Source of the DNA: Octopus vulgaris
Taxonomy: Eukaryota
Direction: 5' to 3'
Length of the DNA stretch: 64,000 nucleotides
Assembly (NCBI GenBank): GCA_951406725.2
Contig: OX597821.1
Span: forward strand, 62,806,001 to 62,870,000
Under the pieces are notes generated by a model. It had not been told where the DNA came from and ran no database searches. It saw only the letters and a program-made list of their open reading frames with translations. Shown piece after piece: positions 3,449-55,457 of the stretch. Positions within the stretch are counted from its first letter, which is position 1. The number at the start of each line of letters is the position of its first letter. A program made the position numbers and the translations under genes.

Positions 3449-3651
3449 GTTTTAGTACCAGACCAGCAATTTCGGGGTGGAGCTAAGTCGATTAAATCGA
3501 CCTCAGTGCTCAACTGGTACTTATTATATTCAAGCCAAAGGAATGAAAGGTAAAGTAGAGCGCAGCATCATTTGAGATTAGAACGTAAAGACGGATGAAA
3601 TGCCGCTAAGCATTCTCCCTGGCGTGCTAACAATTCTGCCACCTCACCGCT
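3449..3651 (-). mobile_element. tRNA-derived SINE, family 1 (Meta-domain-like core), degraded
   Basis: Homologous to the copies at 19.6-20.2, 40.7, 45.3, 50.1 and 57.3 kb (taagtcgatt..atcgacc.cagtg..caactggtactta...aaaggatgaaagg.aaagt). Confidence 0.75.
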
Positions 3652-3695
3652 TTCCTAACAACAGTAACAACGACGTCATTGTTAACACCAACACC

Positions 3696-3734
3696 AATAA
3701 TAATAATAATAAGAAGAAGAACAACAACAACAAC

Positions 3735-3803
<69 letters not shown>
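3696..3803. repeat. (AAT)n/(AAC)n microsatellite at the 5' junction of the LINE
   Basis: Read directly from the sequence. Confidence 0.95.
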
Positions 3804-3804
<1 letters not shown>

Positions 3805-5810
3805 TGGATAGACTACAGGAAAGCGTTTGACAGTGTCCCACATAAATGGATACTCAAGGCCCTTGAGATATACAAGATCTCTCCTGTCGTCTCAAAATTC
3901 TTACAGAATAGCATGACCATGTGGAACACACGACTCTTTCTAAGCCATAGTAATGGGATGAGCCAGTCCAACAGCATCAACATCAAACGAGGCATCTTTC
4001 AAGGTGACTCCCTCTCTCCATTACTTTTTTGCATGGCACTGATCCCACTCTCAAACGAATTGGATAGTACCAGATATGGGTACAAAGTTTTTAGTAAGTC
4101 AATAAACCACCTTTTCTATATGGACGACACTAAAGCTGTTTGCCAAGATTGACCAAGAGCTAGAAGGGCTGCTAACAACTGTTAAAGCGTTTAGCAATGA
4201 ATGGATTTTGGCATTGATAAGTGTGCTAAAGCAACTTTTGTAAGAGGCAAGCTCAGGCAAGCAGATTCTGTTAAATTAGATATTGACACTACCATCAAGG
4301 AACTTGACCCACAAGGAAGTTACAAATACCTAGGAATCAACGAAGGAGATGGTAAACATCATGCTACTATGAAGGAAAAAATAAGAAAGGAATACTATAG
4401 GAGAATAAGGTTTGTACTGAAGACTGAACTTAAATCCAAAAATTGCATTGAGGCCATTAACACCCTGGCACTTCTAGTAGTCCAGTACAGTTTTAACATC
4501 ATTAACTGGAACCTTACGGAACGCCAACGCTTGGACAGGAAGACAAGAAAATTACTGACATCCAAGAACATGCACTACCCTAAGGCAGATGTAAACCGCC
4601 TGTACCTACCTAGAAGCAGCGGGGGGAGAGGAATGATGCAATTAGAGCTGTGCTATAAGACCTCCACTGTAGGAATGAACAGGTACCTATCTAGTACAAA
4701 GGACTGGATGCTGCGACTTGTGTGCGAACACGAAAGCAGCAAAAAGCTGCATTCTATTGTCAAGGAGGCTTATAAGTTCGAAAGGGAACTAGACATTAAC
4801 CTTGAATCAGATGAAGAGCCGGAAACCTCTGCTACGAAGCAAGCAAAGCGAATCAAGCAGACTGCAAAAAAAAAAAACGGGCAGAATCAAACTGAGAGGC
4901 GGTGGAGCCAGAAGCCCCTGCATGGACAATATATTCACGGAAGCCAAAATGCTGATGTAGACCAAGCAACAACCCGTCAGTGACTGAAGAGTTCAGGATT
5001 GAAAGCAGAGACTGAAGGCTTCATATTGGCAGCACAAGATCAAAGCTTTTTTACCAGAAATTACCAGGCTAGCTTTCTCCGAAACGGTACTGACCCAAAA
5101 TGCAGATTCTGCGACACATTTGACGAAACAATAGACCATCTCGTTTCGGGATGTCCTGTGCTGACACCAAACGAATACAAAAATCGCCACGATAGGGTAG
5201 GACAGTATATACATTGGAAGATATGTAAACACTACAAATTCGGCACTCCTGCTAACTGGTATGAACATCATCCTCAGCCAGTTGTTGAAGGTAAAAATGT
5301 CACCATCCTCTGGGATTTTCCAGTCAACACTGACAGAACGATCAAGGCTAATCGACCAGACATAATTGTTAAAGACAGGGAAGAAAATACCTGCAGACTA
5401 ATAGAGGTAAGCGTCCCCACTGATAAAAATATATCTGTAAGGGAATTTGACAAACTTAGTAAATATAAGGACCTGGAAATCGAAATACAAAAGATGTGGA
5501 ATCTTAAAACAAAAACTGTTCCTGTTATTGTAGGGATGTTAAGAAAGGGATGTCAGAAACACCTAGACAATGTCCCTAAAGAACCATGTCTCAAGGAAAT
5601 CCAAAATATTGTGCTAACAAGTACTGCCCACATCCTCAGAAAAACCCTATCCATGTAAATGCTTGTGTTGTATTACATGGAGGTATTTCTCTACTTCCCA
5701 TCCCCAAGCTTTCAGCTATATTTCAACAACTCTTAACCTTCACTTGCCCTAGGGCGCTGGGTGTGCCCCGGCAAGTGATTGCATCAAACATGCAGATTAA
5801 AAGTAAATGA
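3804..5810 (+). mobile_element. 5'-truncated R4/Dong-clade non-LTR retrotransposon (RT + CCHC zinc knuckle + restriction-like endonuclease), disrupted
   Basis: Motifs WIDYRKAFDSVPH, RGIFQGDSLSPLLF, HLFYMDD, YKYLG, RLYLPRSSGGRG, CRFC..FDETIDHLVSGC, RHDRV, RPDII, IEVSVP, K..KY. Frameshifts near 4130 and 4200, in-frame stop at 4981, ORF ends at 5658. A ~150-bp 3' UTR follows, then (AAT)n. Confidence 0.92.
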
Positions 5811-11327: not shown

Positions 11328-12586
11328 GAGGGGCGTTCAATAAGTAATGCCCCTGACCCACTTCCCATAGCAGTAGAGCAACGAAACTTGGCACAGTTAT
11401 TAGTCTTTTTCTACATAGGAACCACCCAGAGTTACGCATTTCTTCCATCGTTTGATGCGGCTCTGGAGACCGTTTTTGTAGAAGAACCCAGCTTGGTCCT
11501 CCAACCTCAACGTGACTTCAGAAATCAAGGCTGCATCATCTGGGAAACGCTTTCCTTTCAAAAACAACTTCATGATTGGGAAGAGGTGAAAATCAGAGGG
11601 TGCAAGGTCAGGAAAGTAGGGGGGATGGGGAGGAGTTCATAGGCATACGCCTGTGTTTCTGATCTGGCGACAAGCGAGTTGTGGACCGGAGCGTTGTCCT
11701 GCAGGAGGAGGATGCCTTTGCTGATCTTGCCCCGCCTCTTGATTTTGATAACTTCTCTTAATTTCCTTAAAAGTGAAGCATAATAGGCTCCTGCAATTGT
11801 GGTACCCTTTGCCAGGAAATCTACCATCACTACTCCGTCCTGGTCCCAGAAGACTGTGAGCATGACCTTGCCAGCGGAGGGCTGCATCCTTGCCTTCTTT
11901 GGAGGGGTTGAGTCACGGTGCTTCCACTGCATTGACTGGGCTTTGGTCTCTGGATCATCGTGATGGACCCAGGTTTCATCCTGTGTAATCAGTCTTTTGA
12001 AAAATTTTGACTCATCTTCTTGGCACATCTCCAAATTCACCCTCGAGCACTCGACGCGTTCTTGCTTCTGGAAAGGCGTAAGCAACCTGGGAATCCATCT
12101 GACAGACACCTTTTGCATATGCAAATGGTCATGAATGATAGTTTCCACAGACCCGGTACTAATCTTGACCTCATGGGCTATTTGGCGAATAATTATGCGT
12201 CGATCTTCCAAAATGGCAGCCTCAACTTGACGGACAGATGCCTCATCAATGGCAGAAGGGGGCGACCAGATCTGGGAGCTGTTTCCACCGAGTTCCGTCC
12301 ATGTTTGAATTCACGATGCCAGCGTTTTACAAGGTCATATGATGGGGCATCATCACCATAAGTTACTTTCATTTCATCAAAAGACTCCCGTGGTATGCGT
12401 CCTTTCAAATACAAAAACCGGATCACTGCTCGACATTCAACAGGCTCCATTTCACACTTGACTCGGTTCAAACACATGTAAATCAGAAACCACTCTATAG
12501 AGATATAAATAATTGCACATGCAAAATTTCAGCTAGATCGAACAACTGCAAGTGGGTCAGAGGCATTACTTATTGAACGTCCCTCG
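11327..12586 (-). mobile_element. Mariner DNA transposon copy 1, frameshifted transposase
   Basis: TIR cgaggggcgttcaataagtaatgcccctgacccactt and its inverse at ~12550-12586, flanked by TA. Transposase motifs WIPRLL, ITQDETWVHH, VFWD, LLQDNAPVH and (shifted frame) PYFPDLAPSDFHLF; N-terminal HTH in ORF 12193-12477. Confidence 0.95.
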
Positions 12587-18216: not shown

Positions 18217-19507
18217 CGAGGGGCGTTCAATAAGTAATGCCCCTGACCCACGTCCCATAGCAGTAGAGCAACAAAACTTGGCACAGTTATTAGTCTTTTT
18301 CTACATACAAACCACTCAGAGTTACGCATTTCTCCCATTGTTTGATGCAGCTCTGGAGACCGTTTTTGTAGAAGACCCCACCTTGGTCCTCCAACCACGA
18401 CGTGACTTCAGAAATCAAGGCTGCATTATCTGGGAAACGCTTTCCTTTCAAAAACAACTTCATTGCTGGGAAGAGGTGAATATCAGAGGTTGCAAGGTCA
18501 GGAGAGTAGGGAGATAAGAGAGAAGTTCATAGCCGCATGCCTGTGCTTCTGATCTGGCGACACGCGAGTTGTGGATCAGAGCGTTGTCCTGCAGGAGGAG
18601 GATGCCTTTGCTGATCTTGCCCCGCCTCTTGATTTTGATAGCTTCTCTTAATTTCCTCAAAAGTGAAGCATAATAGGCTCCTGTAATTGTGGTACCCTTT
18701 GCCAGGAAATCTGTCATCACTACTCCGTCCTGGTCCCAGAAGACTGTGAGCATGACCTTCCCAGCGGAGGGCTGCACCCTTGCCTTCTTTGGAGGAGGTG
18801 AGTCACGGTGCTTCCACTGCATTGACTAGGCTTTGGTCTCTGGATCATAGTGATGGACCCAGGTTTCATCCTGTGTAATCAGTCTTTTGAAAAATTTTGA
18901 CTCATCTTCTTGGCACATCTCCAAATTCACCCTCGAGCACTCGACGCGTTCTTGCTTCTTGAAAGGTGTGAGCAACCTGGGAATCCATCCGGCAGACACC
19001 TTTTGCATATGCAAATGGTCATGAATGATAGTTTCCACAGACCCGGTACTAATCTTGACCTCATGGGCTATTTGACGAATAGTTACGCGTCGATCTTCCA
19101 AAATGGCAGCCTCAACTTGACGGACAGATGCCTCATCAATAGCAGAAGGGGGCGACCAGATCTGGGAGCTGTTTCCACAGAGTTCCGACCATGTTTGAAT
19201 TTATGATGCCAGCGTTTTACAAGGTCATATGATGGGGCATCATCACCATAAGTTACTTTCATTTCATCAAAAGACTCCCGTGGTGTGCGTCCTTTCAAAT
19301 ACAAAAACCGGATCACTGCTCGACACTTAACAGGCTCCATTTCATACTTGACTCAGTTAAAACACCTGTAAATCAGAAACCACGATTAGTTCAGAGCTGT
19401 AATTTACCACTTAATCTATAGAGATATAAATAATTGCGCATACAAAATTTTAGCTAGATCGAACAACTGCAAGTGTGTCAGGGGCATTATTTATTGAACG
19501 TCCCTCG
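18217..19507 (-). mobile_element. Mariner DNA transposon copy 2 (same family as 11327-12586), disrupted
   Basis: Same TIRs with TA flanks and highly similar to copy 1. In-frame stop at 18826 plus frameshifts; retains ~31 bp (around 19383-19414) that is absent from copy 1. Confidence 0.95.
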
Positions 19508-24229: not shown

Positions 24230-24756
24230 TTAGAGTATGTTTAGTTGTGGTCTGTATTTTTGAATAAGATTACTTTCCCTATTTATTCGTGTTTGGTCTG
24301 TGGTGTTGTCCGAGCATTGGTATAGTGGGAAGACTAAGAATTTGGGGGACTTATTGTGTGCACAAAGGTCTAAGTGTTCACTTAGTGGTATCTGTCTTGT
24401 GGAGGGGTCCCTCAGTTGTTGTCGGTGAACTGTCATTCTTTCTCTGAGGGTAAGGCCTGTTTGCCCTATGTAGTCTTCGTGGCATCCTTCACACTTTATG
24501 ACGTAGAGTAAATTTTTTGATGCGCACGTGAAATTATTTTTTATGATGAATGTGTGTCCCGAGCGGAACTTGTACGTCGATCCCTCAATGAGGTGGATGC
24601 AAGTCCTGCAGTTGGGGCGACCACATTTTTTGATGGTGGGCGGTGGGTTTGTGTTGTGTAATTTTGCGTTGGTGAGGAGGTTTTTTAGGGTTTAGGTTGT
24701 CTCTTACTTTTTATTATTTTATGAACTGCCAGTATTTTTTTCAGGCGTGGGTCTTG

Positions 24757-27851: not shown

Positions 27852-27857
<6 letters not shown>

Positions 27858-28150
27858 AATATAAGAGAGTGGTCACTATATTGATCACCCTAGCACCAGT
27901 TAATCCAAAAGGTTTCAACCACGAAAAATACATGTTTCCCATGTATTTTTCGTGGTTGAAACCTTTTGGATTAACTGGTGCTAGGGTGATCAATATAGTG
28001 ACCACTCTCTTATATTTATTTTGTGAAAATATTATAATATGTTATAAAATATTATAATAATCCAGGTTTCTCGTAGCACTAGGCCACTTGGTGTGGAATA
28101 AATATACTATTAAATTAGTATCTAATTCTCTCACCCTTATTAATTAATTA
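27852..28150. mobile_element. Fold-back copy of the HHR-element family found at 48 kb
   Basis: Perfect 83-bp inverted arms at 27852-27934 and 27940-28022. 27940-28150 is the reverse complement of ~48467-48680. Flanked by (TA)n. Confidence 0.85.
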
Positions 28151-28164
28151 TATATATATATATA

Positions 28165-28883: not shown

Positions 28884-28959
<76 letters not shown>

Positions 28960-29000
28960 AAAAAAAGCAACAAGAATGGATTGGGAATTCTCTGATGTTT

Positions 29001-29088
29001 TTTCGGCTGACGAGTACGAAACATCTGCATTTACTGCATTTTTTGTAGCTTATTAAAGATGTCCTCGTACGAAACAATTGTACCGAGA
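29001..29088 (+). ncRNA. Type-I hammerhead ribozyme
   Basis: TTTCGG-CTGACGA-GTACGA...TCGTAC-GAAA-CAATTG-TA-CCGAGA: full core, stem I, extended stem II (plus ACATCT/AGATGT), palindromic stem III ACAATTGT and a GUA triplet (cut after 29082). Confidence 0.85.
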
Positions 29089-29707
29089 TTTTAATCCATT
29101 CTTGTTGCTTTTTTCCTATTTGTAATCACCCCACTTGTCGTATGGTTAACACCATATAGATTTCCGGTGCATCCTAGTTAAGGACCATATTTATGTGAAT
29201 TCATTAGAATTCACTTGAATCTCAATTACTTAAACCGTATTCAATACAAAGTGTCTACGACTCCCGTTTCTAGGAATGTCGCTGCGCACAGCACCCTTGT
29301 CACTCTTGATGACGGTGAATTATTTCTTTTTGGCTTTAAAATTGCTGCTAGCAGCCTTGATTATTTTATTAATTTTCACATTACCATTTTACGAAATCAG
29401 TCGCTGGTTGCTATGGCAAATTCCATAATATTGACAGGTGTGAGTTGACGTCTAGCAGCTGTGATGGAGTGAGTATTACTGATGAGTATAAATGTCTTAT
29501 ATTAAATTAGCATGCTAATCTAGTGCATTATGGTCACAGTAGAGAGATTTTCTTCCCTGTCAATACAAAGAATCATGTGCTTTTTTGTGGCTTAAGGTGT
29601 CTACGACTCCTGTTTCGGGCAATGTTGCTGTTCACTCCACCATTGTCACGTTACGTGACGATTAATTATTACCTTCTTGGTTTCAAATTGCTGCTAGCCA
29701 CCTTGAT

Positions 29708-29850
<143 letters not shown>

Positions 29851-37399: not shown

Positions 37400-38820
37400 C
37401 TATCTGTGTCGTGTCCGGGTGCTTGGATAAAATACGGATGTCAAGTCGGCTCGGTGTGCCTCCATGTTGGTGTTTTGGCATGTTAGTATGGAGGAGTGTG
37501 TTTTGTCGTCATATTGTCTCAAATGTAAATTAAGTCTCTCTGCAATATCCAGCTCATATCTGCTCATATCCAGAGAACTGCATGCGGTGCATAAAACTCA
37601 GTACATGTTTCTTAGATTTACTGCGTTCGCATAGTGAGGACACGTTTTTTTATTATCCTAAGTTTGCTATCAATATGTTGGTTTTTATGTTTTGTGACAA
37701 ACATGAATTCTTCTGAACAACATATTTAGAAGCCTTAGATTTCATGTAATAGGAATGGAGGAGCTGCACTCTGTTCTTCCCAGTCTCTAAGCAATGTTTA
37801 ATATCAAGGACAGGGTGTCTATCATTAGGGTGCCTAGCGGGTTAATCTGTAGTTACCTTAATACTTTGGTGGATAGAGTTAGCTATGTGCTGGATGCTCT
37901 CCATTATAATACTGACGGTTTCTACACTACAGTTCATAGAATGTGTCTCAACTAGAATATTTATGTCATCTACCCACCAACAGTTAAGCAATACAGTTGC
38001 AGATTGTTCAGCTAAGGATTAAGTTTTCTGTTCCACCAGGTCATGAAGAGACCAGACATATCTCCAGCCACATCAACGCAAATGACTGCACCTTGACCTT
38101 GGATAAATAGTTTCCTGTGGAACTTTATTGTGTGGGTTTTCAACGTGGTTCTTATGCTAGCTTTTATTGCATGTGTAATCATTCTTTTCATTTGAATGTT
38201 GTTCTCAGGGTACTGGGTAGTTATGGTCCACTTCAGTGTTCTACAGTGCTTTTCTTCACTACCGAGTTGATGATGAATGTCTTCCTCTCTGTGACCTGGT
38301 GGGGCAGAATATACGAAGGTCATGGTTGTCTAGGTAATTACTGTCATAGCTCACTTTAAGGAGTAGACCCTTTTCCCTCGTGTTGACTTCACCGGACTCT
38401 ACCTCACTCTCACATGTATGTCTATAGATGGATAGAGTGAAACTACATCCATACTACCCACTACACAACCTGTAAGGTCGTTGCAGTGGTTGATATTACT
38501 GGTCCTCCGTGCTCAATCACACGTCCGGGGACATTTCAATGAGTAACACCTGTGAGAGGAAATAAGCCTGTAATTGCTGGGGATATTCGATCCACAAACT
38601 GACCGGGTTGAGGACGCCATAATAGGGTTTACGTAGGGTTTATGGTTCTTACGCAAGCCGTGTAGCGTAGGACCATCTTTGCTGAATACTTGGAAATTTT
38701 GTGCAGTCCGTTTCTTTGGTTGGAGTATGTTACACCACGTTCCTATGTGTGCATTGAGACGTTTTTCCACACTTTCATGTTCCTGTCGTGCAATTTCTCT
38801 CATGCTACTGATGCTGAATG
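37400..38820 (-). pseudogene. Degraded Penelope-like reverse transcriptase
   Basis: Minus strand, in order: PTLHGLRKNHK (PxLYGLPKxHK), HTIKFHRKLFIQGQGAVIC (FxxxxYxQxxGxxxG), WVDDINI (YVDD), DYP.RHPNDRHPVLD (LPFLD). Confidence 0.75.
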
Positions 38821-47296: not shown

Positions 47297-47299
<3 letters not shown>

Positions 47300-47640
47300 C
47301 TTGGCTAATTCCCAATTTTACAACATAAAGACAGAAATATACACGTCACTGAAGTGAACAAGGGTATTAATCAGCACCATTGTTCTTAGTAAGAGTCAAA
47401 ACAACTCAATAGCCACAATGTATTATGTTAATGAGCTACGGTCGCAGATAGAACCAGATCACCGATGGTTTCATATGTTCGTGCTCAACGCGTCTCAACT
47501 CTCATCAGTAGCTTCCACGACGTCTAAGTTTAAAGTCAGTGTCTTCGTGCCTATTTTGTTGTTTTGACTCTTATTTCTAGTAATACTAGCGCTGACTGGT
47601 GCCCTTGTTGACTTTAGTGACGAGTGTTTACATAAATATA
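47297..47640 (-). mobile_element. Hairpin element with degenerate minimal HHR (47483-47512)
   Basis: Inverted arms 47341-47375/47591-47627 and 47388-47405/47558-47576. Minus strand GCTA-CTGATGA-GAGTT-GAGA-CGCG-TT-GAGC. Confidence 0.55.
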
Positions 47641-47919
47641 TATGTACATACTATTGAATCTTGCGAGGGGCATTATGTTGTTAATAAAAACACTCACACT
47701 GGTTCCGCCCCTTATTGTTATTGTTAGTTAGAGGATTAGATATTCAACTAACAAATTTATCGATCAACCGTTTACTTTTACTAGTTTTTTTCAAACTCGT
47801 ATTTTAAACTCTTTCCTCAAACAGTCAATCGATAGTTCAAATGTTCGGCATTGCTCATGTTATCATTTTTTTAATAAATTTTTTTATATCGCATTGTTGC
47901 AATCTCTTCAGCGTCTCTC

Positions 47920-47972
<53 letters not shown>

Positions 47973-48010
47973 CAATAATAATAATACGGGTAAAATTACT
48001 AATCGATTAA

Positions 48011-48061
<51 letters not shown>

Positions 48062-48062
<1 letters not shown>

Positions 48063-48891
48063 AAATAAATATAAGAGAGTGGTCACTATATGGCTCACTC
48101 TAGCACTAGTTAATCCAAAAGGTTTCAACCACAAAAATACATGTTTCCCATGAAAGTCAGTACGATTGTTAGCTCACACGGACAGGGCAAATAAAAAATA
48201 ACAAAAATACAGATTATTTTGGGACAATTGTTTCGCTATTAATGAATTAAATGTAATTTTACTTACAAAAAAATCCACTTGTAGCTCGTCAGCCAAAACT
48301 ATCTGGATGAAATCCACTCAATCACACGCCAGATTTTACCATAACGATAAATACACGTGTGGTTCAATTGATTACATCCGACGTTATAATTCAAATGCCC
48401 CAACTAACAGCGCGCCAAACTTTCACGGAAAACAAATACTGCATTTAGAAATAAATGTAGCATAATTATAATTAATTAATAAGGGTGAGAGAATTAGATA
48501 CTAATTTAATAGTATATCTATTCAACACCAAGTGGTCTAGTGCTCCGAGAAACCTGGATTATTATAATATTTTATAATATATTATAATATTTTTACAAAA
48601 TAAATATAAGAGAGTGGTCACTATATGGCTCACTCTAGCACTAGTTAATCCAAAAGGTTTCAACCACAAAAATACATGTTTCCCATGAAAGTCAGTACGA
48701 TTGTTAGCTCACACGGACAGGGCAAATAAAAAATAACAAAAATACTGATTATTTTGGGACAATTGTTTCGCTAAAAATATTATAATATATTATAAAATAT
48801 TATAATAATCCAGGTTTCTCGGAGCACTAGACCACTTGGTGTTGAATAGATATACTATTAAATTAGTATCTAATTCTCTCACCCTTATTAA

Positions 48892-48900
<9 letters not shown>
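48062..48900 (-). mobile_element. HHR-containing non-coding element: 535-bp monomer + partial tandem copy + inverted segment
   Basis: Direct repeat 48062-48238 = 48597-48773; inverted repeat 48467-48595/48772-48900; (TA)n on both sides. Confidence 0.85.
48217..48298 (-). ncRNA. Type-I hammerhead ribozyme
   Basis: Minus strand TTTTGG-CTGACGA-GCTA...TAGC-GAAA-CAATTG-TC-CCAAAA: perfect core, GUC triplet, 6-bp stem I extendable with AGAT/ATCT. Confidence 0.88.
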
Positions 48901-48955
<55 letters not shown>

Positions 48956-48959
<4 letters not shown>

Positions 48960-49389
48960 GAGGGTGAAAAATGTGATATTAATTTAATAATACCATCAAT
49001 TTAACATCAAGTGGCTTAGCACATAAAGATCAGGGATACAATACAAATTTATACATAAATATGAGAGAGTGACCACTATGTAGTCTACTCTAGTGCTAAA
49101 AGTAGATCCACTATGGTATAGCCACTAAAATAATTATTTCTAAGGAGAAATAACACAACATTTAACGTGGGGCAAGTGAAAAATAACGCAAAAATAGATT
49201 AACCCTGAACAATTGTTTCATTATTAAAGTAAATACAATTTTATTTACACAACATCCATAAATCATCAGCAGGAGTTTGTCTTAAATACAATTTATTAAA
49301 TCGGTCGTTATATTTCGACGCAGCAGTGGCTATACTATAGTGGATCTATTTTTAGCACTAGAGTAGACCACATAGTGGTCACTCTCTCA

Positions 49390-49396
<7 letters not shown>
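48956..49396 (-). mobile_element. Diverged sister subfamily of the 48-kb element, with ~72-bp inverted arms
   Basis: 48958-49025 is homologous to 48480-48545 and 49055-49110 to 48600-48655. Arms at 49055-49126/49325-49396; (TA)n flanks. Confidence 0.8.
49204..49273 (-). ncRNA. Type-I hammerhead ribozyme (U.U at the base of stem II)
   Basis: Minus strand CCTG-CTGATGA-TTTAT...ATAAT-GAAA-CAATTG-TT-CAGG. Confidence 0.75.
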
Positions 49397-52096: not shown

Positions 52097-52297
52097 ATAT
52101 CAGATGCAAAGCTATAAACACCAAAATTTCCAATGGCAAAGTAGTTATCTTTCCTTTCAACCAATTCGGTGCAGTAGCCAAGTATTCCTGTGTGGACTCA
52201 TACAAGCTAGTTGGCCTCTTCATGAGGGTATGCCAAGGAGATCTTTCCTGGAGTGGAGAAGAACCAGAATGCGTTCTCAACACGGTAGATGGCACTG
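52097..52297 (+). CDS. Internal coding exon encoding one Sushi/CCP (SCR) domain of an extracellular protein (possibly LEV-9-like)
   Basis: Polypyrimidine tract + tttcAG acceptor and G|GTGAGG donor; 201 nt, phase 1-1. Reads xIRCKAINTKISNGKVVIFPFNQFGAVAKYSCVDSYKLVGLFMRVCQGDLSWSGEEPECVLNTVDGT, with 4 Cys, NG, Y.C...Y.L.G and C....WS...P.C. Confidence 0.9.
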
Positions 52298-52975: not shown

Positions 52976-55397
52976 AGTAATAATAACAACAACAACAATA
53001 ATTATAATAATAATTAGAATCATTAGAATAATAATGAATACACCAATTATGATTTGCTCCTAAAAAGTTCAAATAAAAATGTTTAGAAACTACAAATAAT
53101 GAAAATAAGGAAAATGTTAAAAGATAATTACATACGTAAATCTTGTAAAATTTATTGAAAATTAACTCATATAATTAGTCTACTATCAGTTTTAATAGTG
53201 GTCCTTGATGAAATTTCAGCGAAGTAAACAATCTTGCTCTGTTTAATAAAGACATTATAAAAAAATTTAACTATACAAATGGAAATCGTTTTATTAAGTC
53301 CAAGTTAACTCGAAAATGCTTATTTGGAGAGTAGAATTAAAAAGTGCAGAAAGTGGAACGTGCGTAACCTCTGTCAGTAGAATCAAATAAACTGGTAACT
53401 GCCGAAAATGATAGTATTCTAAATAGAACAGGACATAAACAAAAGAGAAGAGTTGAAAGTAGATATGTTAAGAATATGTTGCAAGCTTAGAGGAGTATAT
53501 TTCTGTACATTCTACTCTTAACACAGCAATTTCGATAATAAACTGCGATAATTTCGAAAATTAACAGCCCGTGTCTAAACAAAACTTTGGACCTTAAGGC
53601 ATAATCTAAATTAGGAAAATACATTTTAAGAGATACATATAGAAAAAGAAAGGCAAAAAGAGAAACAGGCCGCATGGAAATATGTAACGAGAAAATATGT
53701 AACGAAACAAAAAAAATGACCGCAAATTATACAATTTACAACATAAATCACGAAGATACACTTCCCACATGTAAATCAGGATGAAGAGGAGTAACAAAAC
53801 CAATACTAAAGCGAGTATAGAGTACCCGGTCAATAGGATGCTGACCAGTAAACACAGTCAAAAATATATATATGATAAATATGCCTACATTGGTATAAGA
53901 AATTTTATAGAGGAAAATAGTAAGTTTTAAAATTTGGGGTACTTTTAACTTACGATTTTGACTTTTAACAATTAAAGAAATAATTACATTTTAAAAACAC
54001 ATCTGTTTATGACAAAATAGAGGTATTTCCTGATTATGAATCTGAACGTTAAAATAGCATCATAAAAACGCAAACCTTGCCGTCTCAGACCTAATAAAAA
54101 CAAATACGTATATCAATATGATCATGCTCGGTAAAGTAGCACAGGCAATTCGAGGCATCGACGAATTCACACAACATGGAACACTAATATAACAGTATGA
54201 TAGTAAAAAAGGGGAATAATAACTGAACACATAATAGAAAAAATTATGATAACGATATAAATACTATAGTGCATAATTGCATAAAATCTATGGCGATTGA
54301 ATAATGTCCGACTATACTGCCTGCATGTATGGAGTTGATTACCACTGCTCAGGAAATAATCTTACAATAATTTTTAAAGAATGCATAATGACATTCCAAA
54401 GCATATTATACACCTAATCTAAAAAATCAATTTAGAATAGAAATTCATCCAAGTCGCACGTCATCTGAAGTAATGAGCTGGTTTTTAGTCGATGTTTTTG
54501 ATATCTCTGCAAACTCGGCCTAATTGAGCTGCGAATTTCTGGCTCAAGGCTAAACACAAAATGCATTAATGATTGAATGACATTTATTATATTGGCCAGC
54601 TATACAGTTACTTTAAATTAATAGCAATTCCTCGTGGCGCTCACGAATAGAAGCTGGATAAATAAATAGGGAGTGAATTACAAACATTATTATCCACGAA
54701 AAAAACATGCATGAATGATAATATCTGAAGTTAATTAGCTGAATTTAGTATCATAATATATTGCTTCTTAAATTATGCCTTTTAGAATGATTATAATAAC
54801 AATTGCTTCAGATGACGTCCCACCATACATAGAGTGGTAAAAATCGATGTACTGAATGTTCACACTGCAGCTCTAAATCTTGGCAATGCCAATTAAGTAA
54901 CAATCTGCGCTAGAATTGGTAATAGGAACTGTACAAACCGAACTTATTTGCTATATGTATTTCAACAGAGAGTTCAACGATTTGAAAATGAATTTTGTCA
55001 CGATGTGAAAATTGTTTCTCTTCTTTCTACTGCCTTAACTCTGAGAATAGTGCTTTAATTAACACTGTAATGAATATAAAACACTTTACTATTTATTTCT
55101 TAGTCACAACGTTATCAAGAAAACATGAAACTATTTTGAAATATCAAACACTAACATATGTTTTAAAACTCCCATAAAATAGTTCCATATTTATATGTTC
55201 TAGTGCAGATAAATAAACAACTTGCGACAAACAAAATAGTAGTTGCCATGTTTGTAATTCTAGTACAAAAATTACCAGTGAAAATAGAAAACTTACGAGC
55301 AAATATGAAGTGTGCAAATAAGAAGCTGAAATTAAAATAATGAAGCTTAAGTTAAAATAATTAACGATTATTATTCAAATTTTACGTAATTTTAAAG

Positions 55398-55457
<60 letters not shown>

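Follow-up and report, generated by a model that had tools for sequence, protein, structure and literature searches.

The 64,000-nt stretch of DNA analysed here (hereafter the window) contains a protein-less repeat family with a unit length of 535 nt, a hammerhead ribozyme (HHR) motif on the minus strand and two fixed ends. This family is likely a non-autonomous Penelope-like element (PLE), which would be copied by a reverse transcriptase (RT)/GIY-YIG endonuclease supplied in trans. The window consists of AT-rich DNA of animal type, rich in microsatellites and old transposons, and the insertion at 48062-48900 is embedded in it, flanked by one (TA)n run of 44 bases and one of 60 bases.

Two kinds of repeats make up the insertion (Table 1). 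Positions 48062-48238 recur at 48597-48773 with a period of 535, and 176 of 177 nucleotides are identical, the sole mismatch being 48211/48746. Furthermore, reverse-complementing 48467-48595 gives 48772-48900 without a mismatch (129/129). An earlier note on this DNA had given both the direct repeat and the inversion with these coordinates, which proved exact. The direct repeats are separated by 358 nt of non-coding sequence. Read in the sense orientation of the ribozyme, the insertion starts with the inverted arm, followed by the 177-nt truncated repeat with half a ribozyme and the full 535-nt unit. Only one copy of the unit is complete, the upstream copy being a half. Counted from the two termini, End A and End B, the arms measure 712 nt and 129 nt, respectively. 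No target-site duplication was readable at this locus, as the (TA)n flanks mask any. The unit has no coding capacity; the longest Met-initiated ORFs comprise 19 aa in sense and 52 aa in antisense direction, and an 87-aa frame at 48202-48462 had no Pfam match. To the left of the insertion, a 48-nt piece at 47970-48017 is placed between two (TA)n runs. Its last 12 bases are the same as those of End B, and there is a 26-nt match at 55386-55411; the piece is possibly the stump of another insertion.

Table 1. Coordinates of the 48062-48900 insertion, its flanks and the related insertions in the window.
Feature	Position	Strand	Remark
(TA)n target microsatellite, left flank	48016-48059		hides any target-site duplication
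Full 535-nt unit	48062-48596	-	3′ end is End A at 48062; no ORF
Hairpin immediately 5′ of End A, with the 5′ strand of the helix pairing with the tail	48072-48106	-	predicted RT docking/start structure
Complete type I hammerhead motif	48216-48299	-	predicted cut 48223/48222
Tail of 130 nt separating End A from End B (at 48467)	48467-48596	-	
Upstream 5′-truncated repeat, 177 nt, pLTR equivalent, half hammerhead	48597-48773	-	half-site cut 48758/48757
Inverted head-to-head arm, exactly the tail, terminus End B	48772-48900	+	2-nt TA overlap with long arm at 48772-48773
(TA)n right flank	48897-48956		common to the 48062-48900 insertion and the neighbouring related element
Second family copy, about 94% identical	27852-28152		92-nt End A arm and 213-nt End B arm; (TA)n on both sides
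Related subfamily element, 70-80% identical in blocks	48956-49395		End B arm long, inverted End A arm short; tail of about 95 nt

The hammerhead, whose strand was unstated in the earlier note, is located on the minus strand and belongs to type I, as the core elements CUGANGA, GAAA and UH are combined with stems I to III at 48216-48299. Stem I comprises 7 bp (48299-48293 paired with 48222-48216) and leads into the catalytic core CUGACGA at 48292-48286. Stem II has 4 bp and is extended by a structured insert of 43 nt. The 3′ part of the motif reads GAAAC-AAUU-GUC with a stem III of 2 bp and a palindromic AAUU loop. The core pattern matched three times in the window compared with 0.02 matches expected, and none of 100 shuffles reached three, although this significance is overstated by a pattern shaped on these very motifs. 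Two of the three matches passed the stem filter, and folding of the HHR region gave a z-score of -3.8. No hammerhead appeared among the 150 of 160 Rfam matches listed or among the nine of a second search, all hits being microsatellite and hairpin noise. This is likely because stem II carries the 43-nt insert. A pattern scan of metagenomes returned 121 matches at 120 loci, none of which combined a stem I of at least 4 bp with a stem II of at least 3 bp. The three blast hits span stretches of only 18-28 nt, and the matches were treated as due to chance.

As the earlier note had recognized, the part of the ribozyme that recurs upstream is the cleavage half: loop 3, the cut site and GAAAC, together with the 3′ strands of stems I and II. 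The repeated 177 nt contain neither CUGACGA nor the 5′ strand of stem I. It had further been proposed that the two halves pair through ACAAUUGU and release a unit-length RNA. The first part of this proposal is feasible by fold energy: a half-plus-full double-hammerhead fold via ACAAUUGU was calculated at -153.9 kcal/mol, compared with -155.4 kcal/mol for the free fold and -149.8 kcal/mol for the monomer geometry. The second part could not be upheld as worded. Since CUGACGA and the 5′ strand of stem I are missing from the half copy, pairing via ACAAUUGU would build a single active site that cuts only the upstream site, and release of a unit from this arrangement is predicted to need a second step.

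Only three insertions of this kind are visible whole in the window. The copy at 27852-28152 ends at the same nucleotides as the 48062-48900 insertion, that is at End A and End B, 130 nt apart, while its inversion point differs. Its arms are identical at 83 of 83 positions and are joined at a native CATG-TTTCC-CATG hairpin. The related element at 48956-49395 displays the mirror arrangement of arms with termini equivalent to End A and End B, and it has a hammerhead motif of its own (CUGAUGA...GAAACAAUUGUU) with a weak stem II. Each of the three insertions combines one End A with one End B, both of which are 3′ ends in the ribozyme sense. The arm lengths differ (712+129, 92+213 and about 368+71), and the 5′ junction is variable, with overlaps of TA and CATG in the two copies of the same family. 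All six insertion ends abut (TA)n, two of them at the same run; such runs are common in the window (38 in 64 kb).

The earlier note had suggested a test for circularly permuted start points. Applied to the copies in the window, this test revealed starts that are not permuted, since two insertions of the same family end identically and the related element ends equivalently. Fixed starts do not refute a circular template because the RT of PLEs starts internally (PMC11167929), and the permutation test cannot decide this point. The inverted end had been attributed to a template switch. Instead, the inverted arm stops at a fixed family terminus against (TA)n and looks like a second priming event, not a random template switch. 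The nucleotide T48536 was informative for the origin of the arms. It is nearly absent from the family: C accounts for 99.9-100% of the depth in all four sequencing runs compared (see below), and the family base also stands in the second copy. T48536 is nevertheless present in both arms of the 48062-48900 insertion. This rare base suggests that both arms were likely copied from one template, or else were homogenised later.

Two of the three elements are foldback-like and all lie in (TA)n, which would also fit a MITE with long terminal inverted repeats (TIRs) and an incidental ribozyme. However, the ends differ by the tail in all three insertions and hence are not TIRs, arm lengths and junctions vary, and the ribozyme core is conserved while its free position N7 varies. 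As identical TIRs were found in none of the three insertions, the MITE reading was rejected as highly improbable.

The layout is that of published PLEs, and the comparison with PLE pLTR tandems and retrozymes drawn earlier is supported. According to Craig et al. (PMC8557442), general PLE features are partial tandems, an adjacent inverted 5′-truncated copy, a tail of 30-40 bp on one end and a (TA)n bias. Arkhipova et al. (PMC3846280) describe two direct pLTRs and one inverted pLTR, palindromic sequence at head-to-head junctions, and pLTRs that act in trans. Like insertions of endonuclease-positive PLEs, the 48062-48900 insertion contains a partial head-to-tail tandem with a type I hammerhead inside the repeat, the upstream pLTR equivalent carrying half of it. 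An inverted 5′-truncated head-to-head copy is present in 3/3 related insertions, with microhomology or a palindrome at the inversion. The tail is one-sided and bounded by two fixed 3′ ends, and the target is an AT-rich or (TA)n microsatellite. In contrast to these PLEs, the 535-nt unit is devoid of an ORF, its tail comprises 130 nt instead of 30-40, and its stem II carries the structured 43-nt insert. The tail, which is also long in the related element (about 95 nt), counts against the PLE reading, as do a loose end at 48403 and a stem I variant at 48297 (see below). Non-autonomous Chlamys PLEs such as MRC1 likewise form pLTRs and head-to-tail insertions but are algal, mostly devoid of hammerheads and directed to another microsatellite target, as far as described in PMC8557442.

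An ORF for RT and GIY-YIG endonuclease, as in an autonomous PLE, is absent from the unit, and tblastn with proteins P0001-P0006 gave no match to it. Likewise, no autonomous partner sharing the end sequence was found within the 64-kb window. The minus strand at 24230-24756 harbors the 5′-truncated 3′ end of a PLE beside a (TA)n run. It encodes a GIY-YIG domain with a CX4CxxC linker, which appears Neptune/Nematis-like by the account in PMC8557442, and is 75% identical to the 772-aa RT and GIY-YIG protein P0001. Endonuclease-bearing PLEs are thus present in the genome. This fragment was rejected as parent of the 535-nt unit, with which it shares no DNA similarity. Penelope expansions in coleoids have been noted by Marino et al. 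(PMC8967140).

From these features we infer the following course of insertion. A PLE endonuclease would nick both strands of a (TA)n tract. Each nick would prime a cDNA at End A or End B, two fixed positions inside the RNA that are 130 nt apart and would be set within a conserved multi-helix structure. The two cDNAs would be joined head to head via short microhomology, leaving one tail-less end and one tailed end per insertion. In the case of 48062-48900, the End A cDNA would have run for 712 nt and crossed the ribozyme cut site twice. In twin priming of L1 elements, two nicks also prime two cDNAs, which are joined by microhomology and leave an inversion; there, the second start is taken opportunistically and the arms adjoin one another on the RNA, whereas in the 535-nt family both starts are fixed and the arms can overlap. 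In the in vitro experiments of Frangieh et al. (PMC11167929), a PLE protein cut AT-rich DNA on both strands and extended both, RT started at two internal sites bounding the tail, and ribozyme cleavage was not needed.

A single priming event might produce similar structures if one cDNA folded back or jumped onto itself, or inserted into a copy already present, the second end then being set by an endonuclease that resolves at fixed sites. Both self-priming (PMC3846280) and endonuclease-mediated resolution (PMC8557442) are in print, and the 27852-28152 copy, with its fully identical arms, turns exactly at the native 4-bp hairpin. Self-priming fold-back explains this perfect palindrome (27852-28022) equally well, and for this copy it is a fair rival. 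At 48773, however, the inverted arm jumps back by 177 nt instead of retracing the adjacent sequence. Moreover, the tail is present in only one arm of the second copy and so was not copyable from the other arm, and the in vitro data link the tail to two RT start sites (PMC11167929). Taken as a whole, single priming followed by DNA-level events is unlikely, and priming at both nicks is the explanation we prefer.

The long arm also bears on the template, which the earlier note had correctly taken to be longer than one unit. It measures 1.33 units and crosses the cut site twice, while cDNA on a cleaved linear monomer could extend no further than 161 nt from End A or 291 nt from End B. Barring an origin of the tandem by insertion into a pre-existing copy, the template was therefore likely either a tandem transcript left uncleaved or a 535-nt circle closed by ligation. 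A linear multimer is slightly favoured, mainly by the in vitro PLE data, and the circle is kept alive by a strong closed fold and a precedent in mussels. A circle would imply the life cycle of a retrozyme, in which tandem transcripts self-cleave, a host RtcB-type ligase closes the 535-nt circle and a PLE RT rolls round it from the fixed internal sites. Such a cycle refines the view of the earlier note, is compatible with the PLE explanation, and is a real possibility to which we assign somewhat less than an even chance.

Several observations are in line with a retrozyme cycle. Like animal non-LTR retrozymes, the 535-nt unit is protein-less, low in GC, highly self-paired and multi-copy, and its type I hammerhead with a 2-bp stem III and a palindromic tetraloop is of the invertebrate retrozyme type. 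Mussel retrozymes give abundant circles, circles of 170-400 nt have been shown, and PLEs were named as likely mobilisers (PMC7229834). The same authors, Cervera and de la Peña, had earlier (2014) described palindromic stem III, dimeric cleavage and a circle model for PLE tandems (PMC4209133). Li et al. (bioRxiv 10.64898/2026.07.22.740005) argue that animal retrozymes are non-autonomous PLEs and list the mobilisation mechanism and invertebrates as open; the unit falls within the range of 51-972 bp given in that preprint. On the other hand, the same preprint defines non-LTR retrozymes by two or more units in a row that have their hammerheads complete, whereas 48062-48900 holds 1.33 units with one complete and one half hammerhead, and no longer tandem occurs within the window. 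The unit exceeds the circles of 170-400 nt shown experimentally. Fixed double ends or inverted arms are not described in the accessible text of PMC7229834 or the preprint. Furthermore, an Anolis PLE inserts without HHR cleavage, with uncleaved RNA as main substrate and no reads ending at the cut site (PMC11167929), and eight of nine Xenopus retrozyme dimers stayed uncleaved in vitro (bioRxiv 10.64898/2026.07.22.740005). Contigs cannot reveal a circle, whose junction would equal that of the genomic tandem.

The closed fold was obtained by structure prediction. The cut-to-cut 535-nt RNA is predicted to form a closed branched rod, in which 67% of the nucleotides are paired at a GC content of 31% (z -7.6; 0/60 shuffles as low). 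The opposite strand reached a z-score of -4.8. Eleven of 12 control windows (10 shuffles each) scored between -2.2 and +2.4, and the remaining one, itself another TA-flanked insertion, scored -5.9. All three elements have retained a hairpin just upstream of End A and two helices that connect this hairpin with the tail, with 55 of 57 cells paired. Three of 19 pairs were changed on both sides, a result that rests on three sequences only and was reached by 31 of 500 shuffles, the structure being derived from the same alignment as tested. For a conserved multi-helix structure spanning End A, this covariation is no more than suggestive.

Public sequencing runs provided further copies of the family. 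The stretch was contained in 20 of 24 listed runs, which come from 12 studies, bear several organism labels and are in no case recorded as RNA. Four runs (X1, X2, X4 and X14) were compared as contigs against a permuted single unit; three are DNA-like, and an RNA nature of X14 is a guess. They yielded 4590, 2383, 644 and 63 matching contigs, respectively, and summed depths were not taken as copy numbers. In the three DNA-like runs, 82-84% of the contigs were at least 95% alike, and all 30 bins were covered. This high identity and full coverage thus identify a young multi-copy family. The 535-nt family was not described in the mostly open-access literature searched, and it may be catalogued already.

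Contigs of X1 and X2, among those listed, bridge the 48596/48597 tandem junction with at least 31 letters on each side. Joints of the type 'goes back 535' were rejected as tandem evidence, since they restore the continuity of the permuted reference unit. Among the 24 of 216 loose-end rows listed, (TA)n ends occurred near End A at 48587 (five contigs of X4), at End B 48467 (one contig of X14) and elsewhere once, at 48403 in X1. The inversion joint of 48062-48900 was absent among the five joints listed, and one other strand-change joint was listed (X2). This absence, together with the trouble that tandem and inverted PLE structures cause in assemblies (PMC8557442), would agree with an artefact of collapsed or chimeric repeat copies between TA runs. 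Against this, the window holds a separate copy whose ends agree but whose junction is different, one base distinguishes the two direct repeats, the rare base is common to both arms, and the tandem junction is bridged in other runs. An assembly artefact is thus very unlikely. Recurrent loose ends with common sequences were seen at 48183 and 48316 in X1, X2, X4 and X14. They suggest sister families with nothing but the ribozyme region in common, one of which could be the pLTR of the autonomous partner.

Within the ribozyme, N7 (48288) is the only core position that commonly varies in the three DNA-like runs (28%, 3% and 38% of depth, among the 40 of 52 rows listed). A stem I variant at 48220 keeps the pair as G-U. 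Another one at 48297 breaks the fifth pair and makes up 8% of depth in X1, 76% in X2 and 0 in X4. Judged from contigs, this pattern of variation would lend indirect support to self-cleavage of the hammerhead.

Several neighbouring elements were observed in the window. The plus-strand element at 28958-29716 is flanked by (TA)n and has a hammerhead motif at 29007 with 6-bp stems I and II, the same AAUU loop and a GUA site. Its left arm is inverted over 22-28 nt, and 122 nt are duplicated internally at a distance of 346 nt; beyond the ribozyme core, comparison with the 535-nt unit detected no DNA similarity. A structured (TA)n-flanked insertion at 47298-47922 (z -5.9) contains a 79-nt inverted repeat (76%) around a minus-strand hammerhead-like variant (CUGAUGA ... 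GAAAC ... AUC) with an imperfect stem III, and is probably another PLE-type family. Other elements are a broken LINE with an RT domain at 3631-5658 (+), two mariner-type transposase copies at 11570-12310 (-) and 18460-19200 (-), and a weak match (E 0.005) to PLE-type RT proteins at 37674-38039 (-). At about 52097-52290 (+), an exon-like Sushi/CCP domain (PF00084, E 1.8e-10) follows a polypyrimidine-AG acceptor; no upstream exon of this gene was found. If 48062-48900 is intronic to it, the host pre-mRNA would carry the non-ribozyme strand and a perfect 129-bp hairpin.

Run X14 differed in the type of nucleotide changes. T>C or A>G accounted for 35 of its 39 changed places; for the DNA-like runs the figures were 12 of 21, 14 of 23 and 10 of 17. 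Fifteen of the 40 rows listed were changes exclusive to X14, all of them T>C (12) or A>G (3), where a plus-strand T>C corresponds to A>G on the ribozyme strand. The X14 changes include 48233 (A13), which is absent from the DNA-like runs, and 48231 (A15.1), found at 0.04% in one of them. As a lead, this pattern matches the expectation for a structured transcript that undergoes A-to-I editing, and it would reach catalytic adenosines; it comes from few contigs, low depth favours the listing of X14 rows, and the DNA-like runs are other samples. Edited retrozyme hammerheads were not described in the mostly open-access literature searched. A more far-reaching reading, which we consider rather improbable, combines these points: an abundant 535-nt ribozyme circle would be read by a PLE enzyme from two fixed, structure-defined starts, one per nick, and editing of A13 and A15.1 by host ADAR would switch cleavage off. 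PMC7229834 leaves open how the ribozyme is blocked in circles and if their heterogeneity is due to editing. If this reading were true, retrozyme circles would be tied directly to PLE integration chemistry, every insertion would be built with one tailed and one tail-less end by paired starts, and editing would be a possible answer to what stops hammerheads in animal circles from cutting.

Every architectural feature of 48062-48900 is already in print for PLEs, and as a single insertion it is ordinary; among PLE insertions, the long tail and the long stem II set the 535-nt family apart. Thanks to the long tail, the two start sites can readily be told apart. That PLEs move animal retrozymes has been argued from phylogeny, and the insertion structure adds to this argument. 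The 535-nt family represents a small, young, multi-copy model, in which a protein-less RNA seems to carry all that PLE mobilisation needs, and it opens to testing whether circles give rise to PLE tandems and whether genomic hammerheads are under the control of RNA editing.
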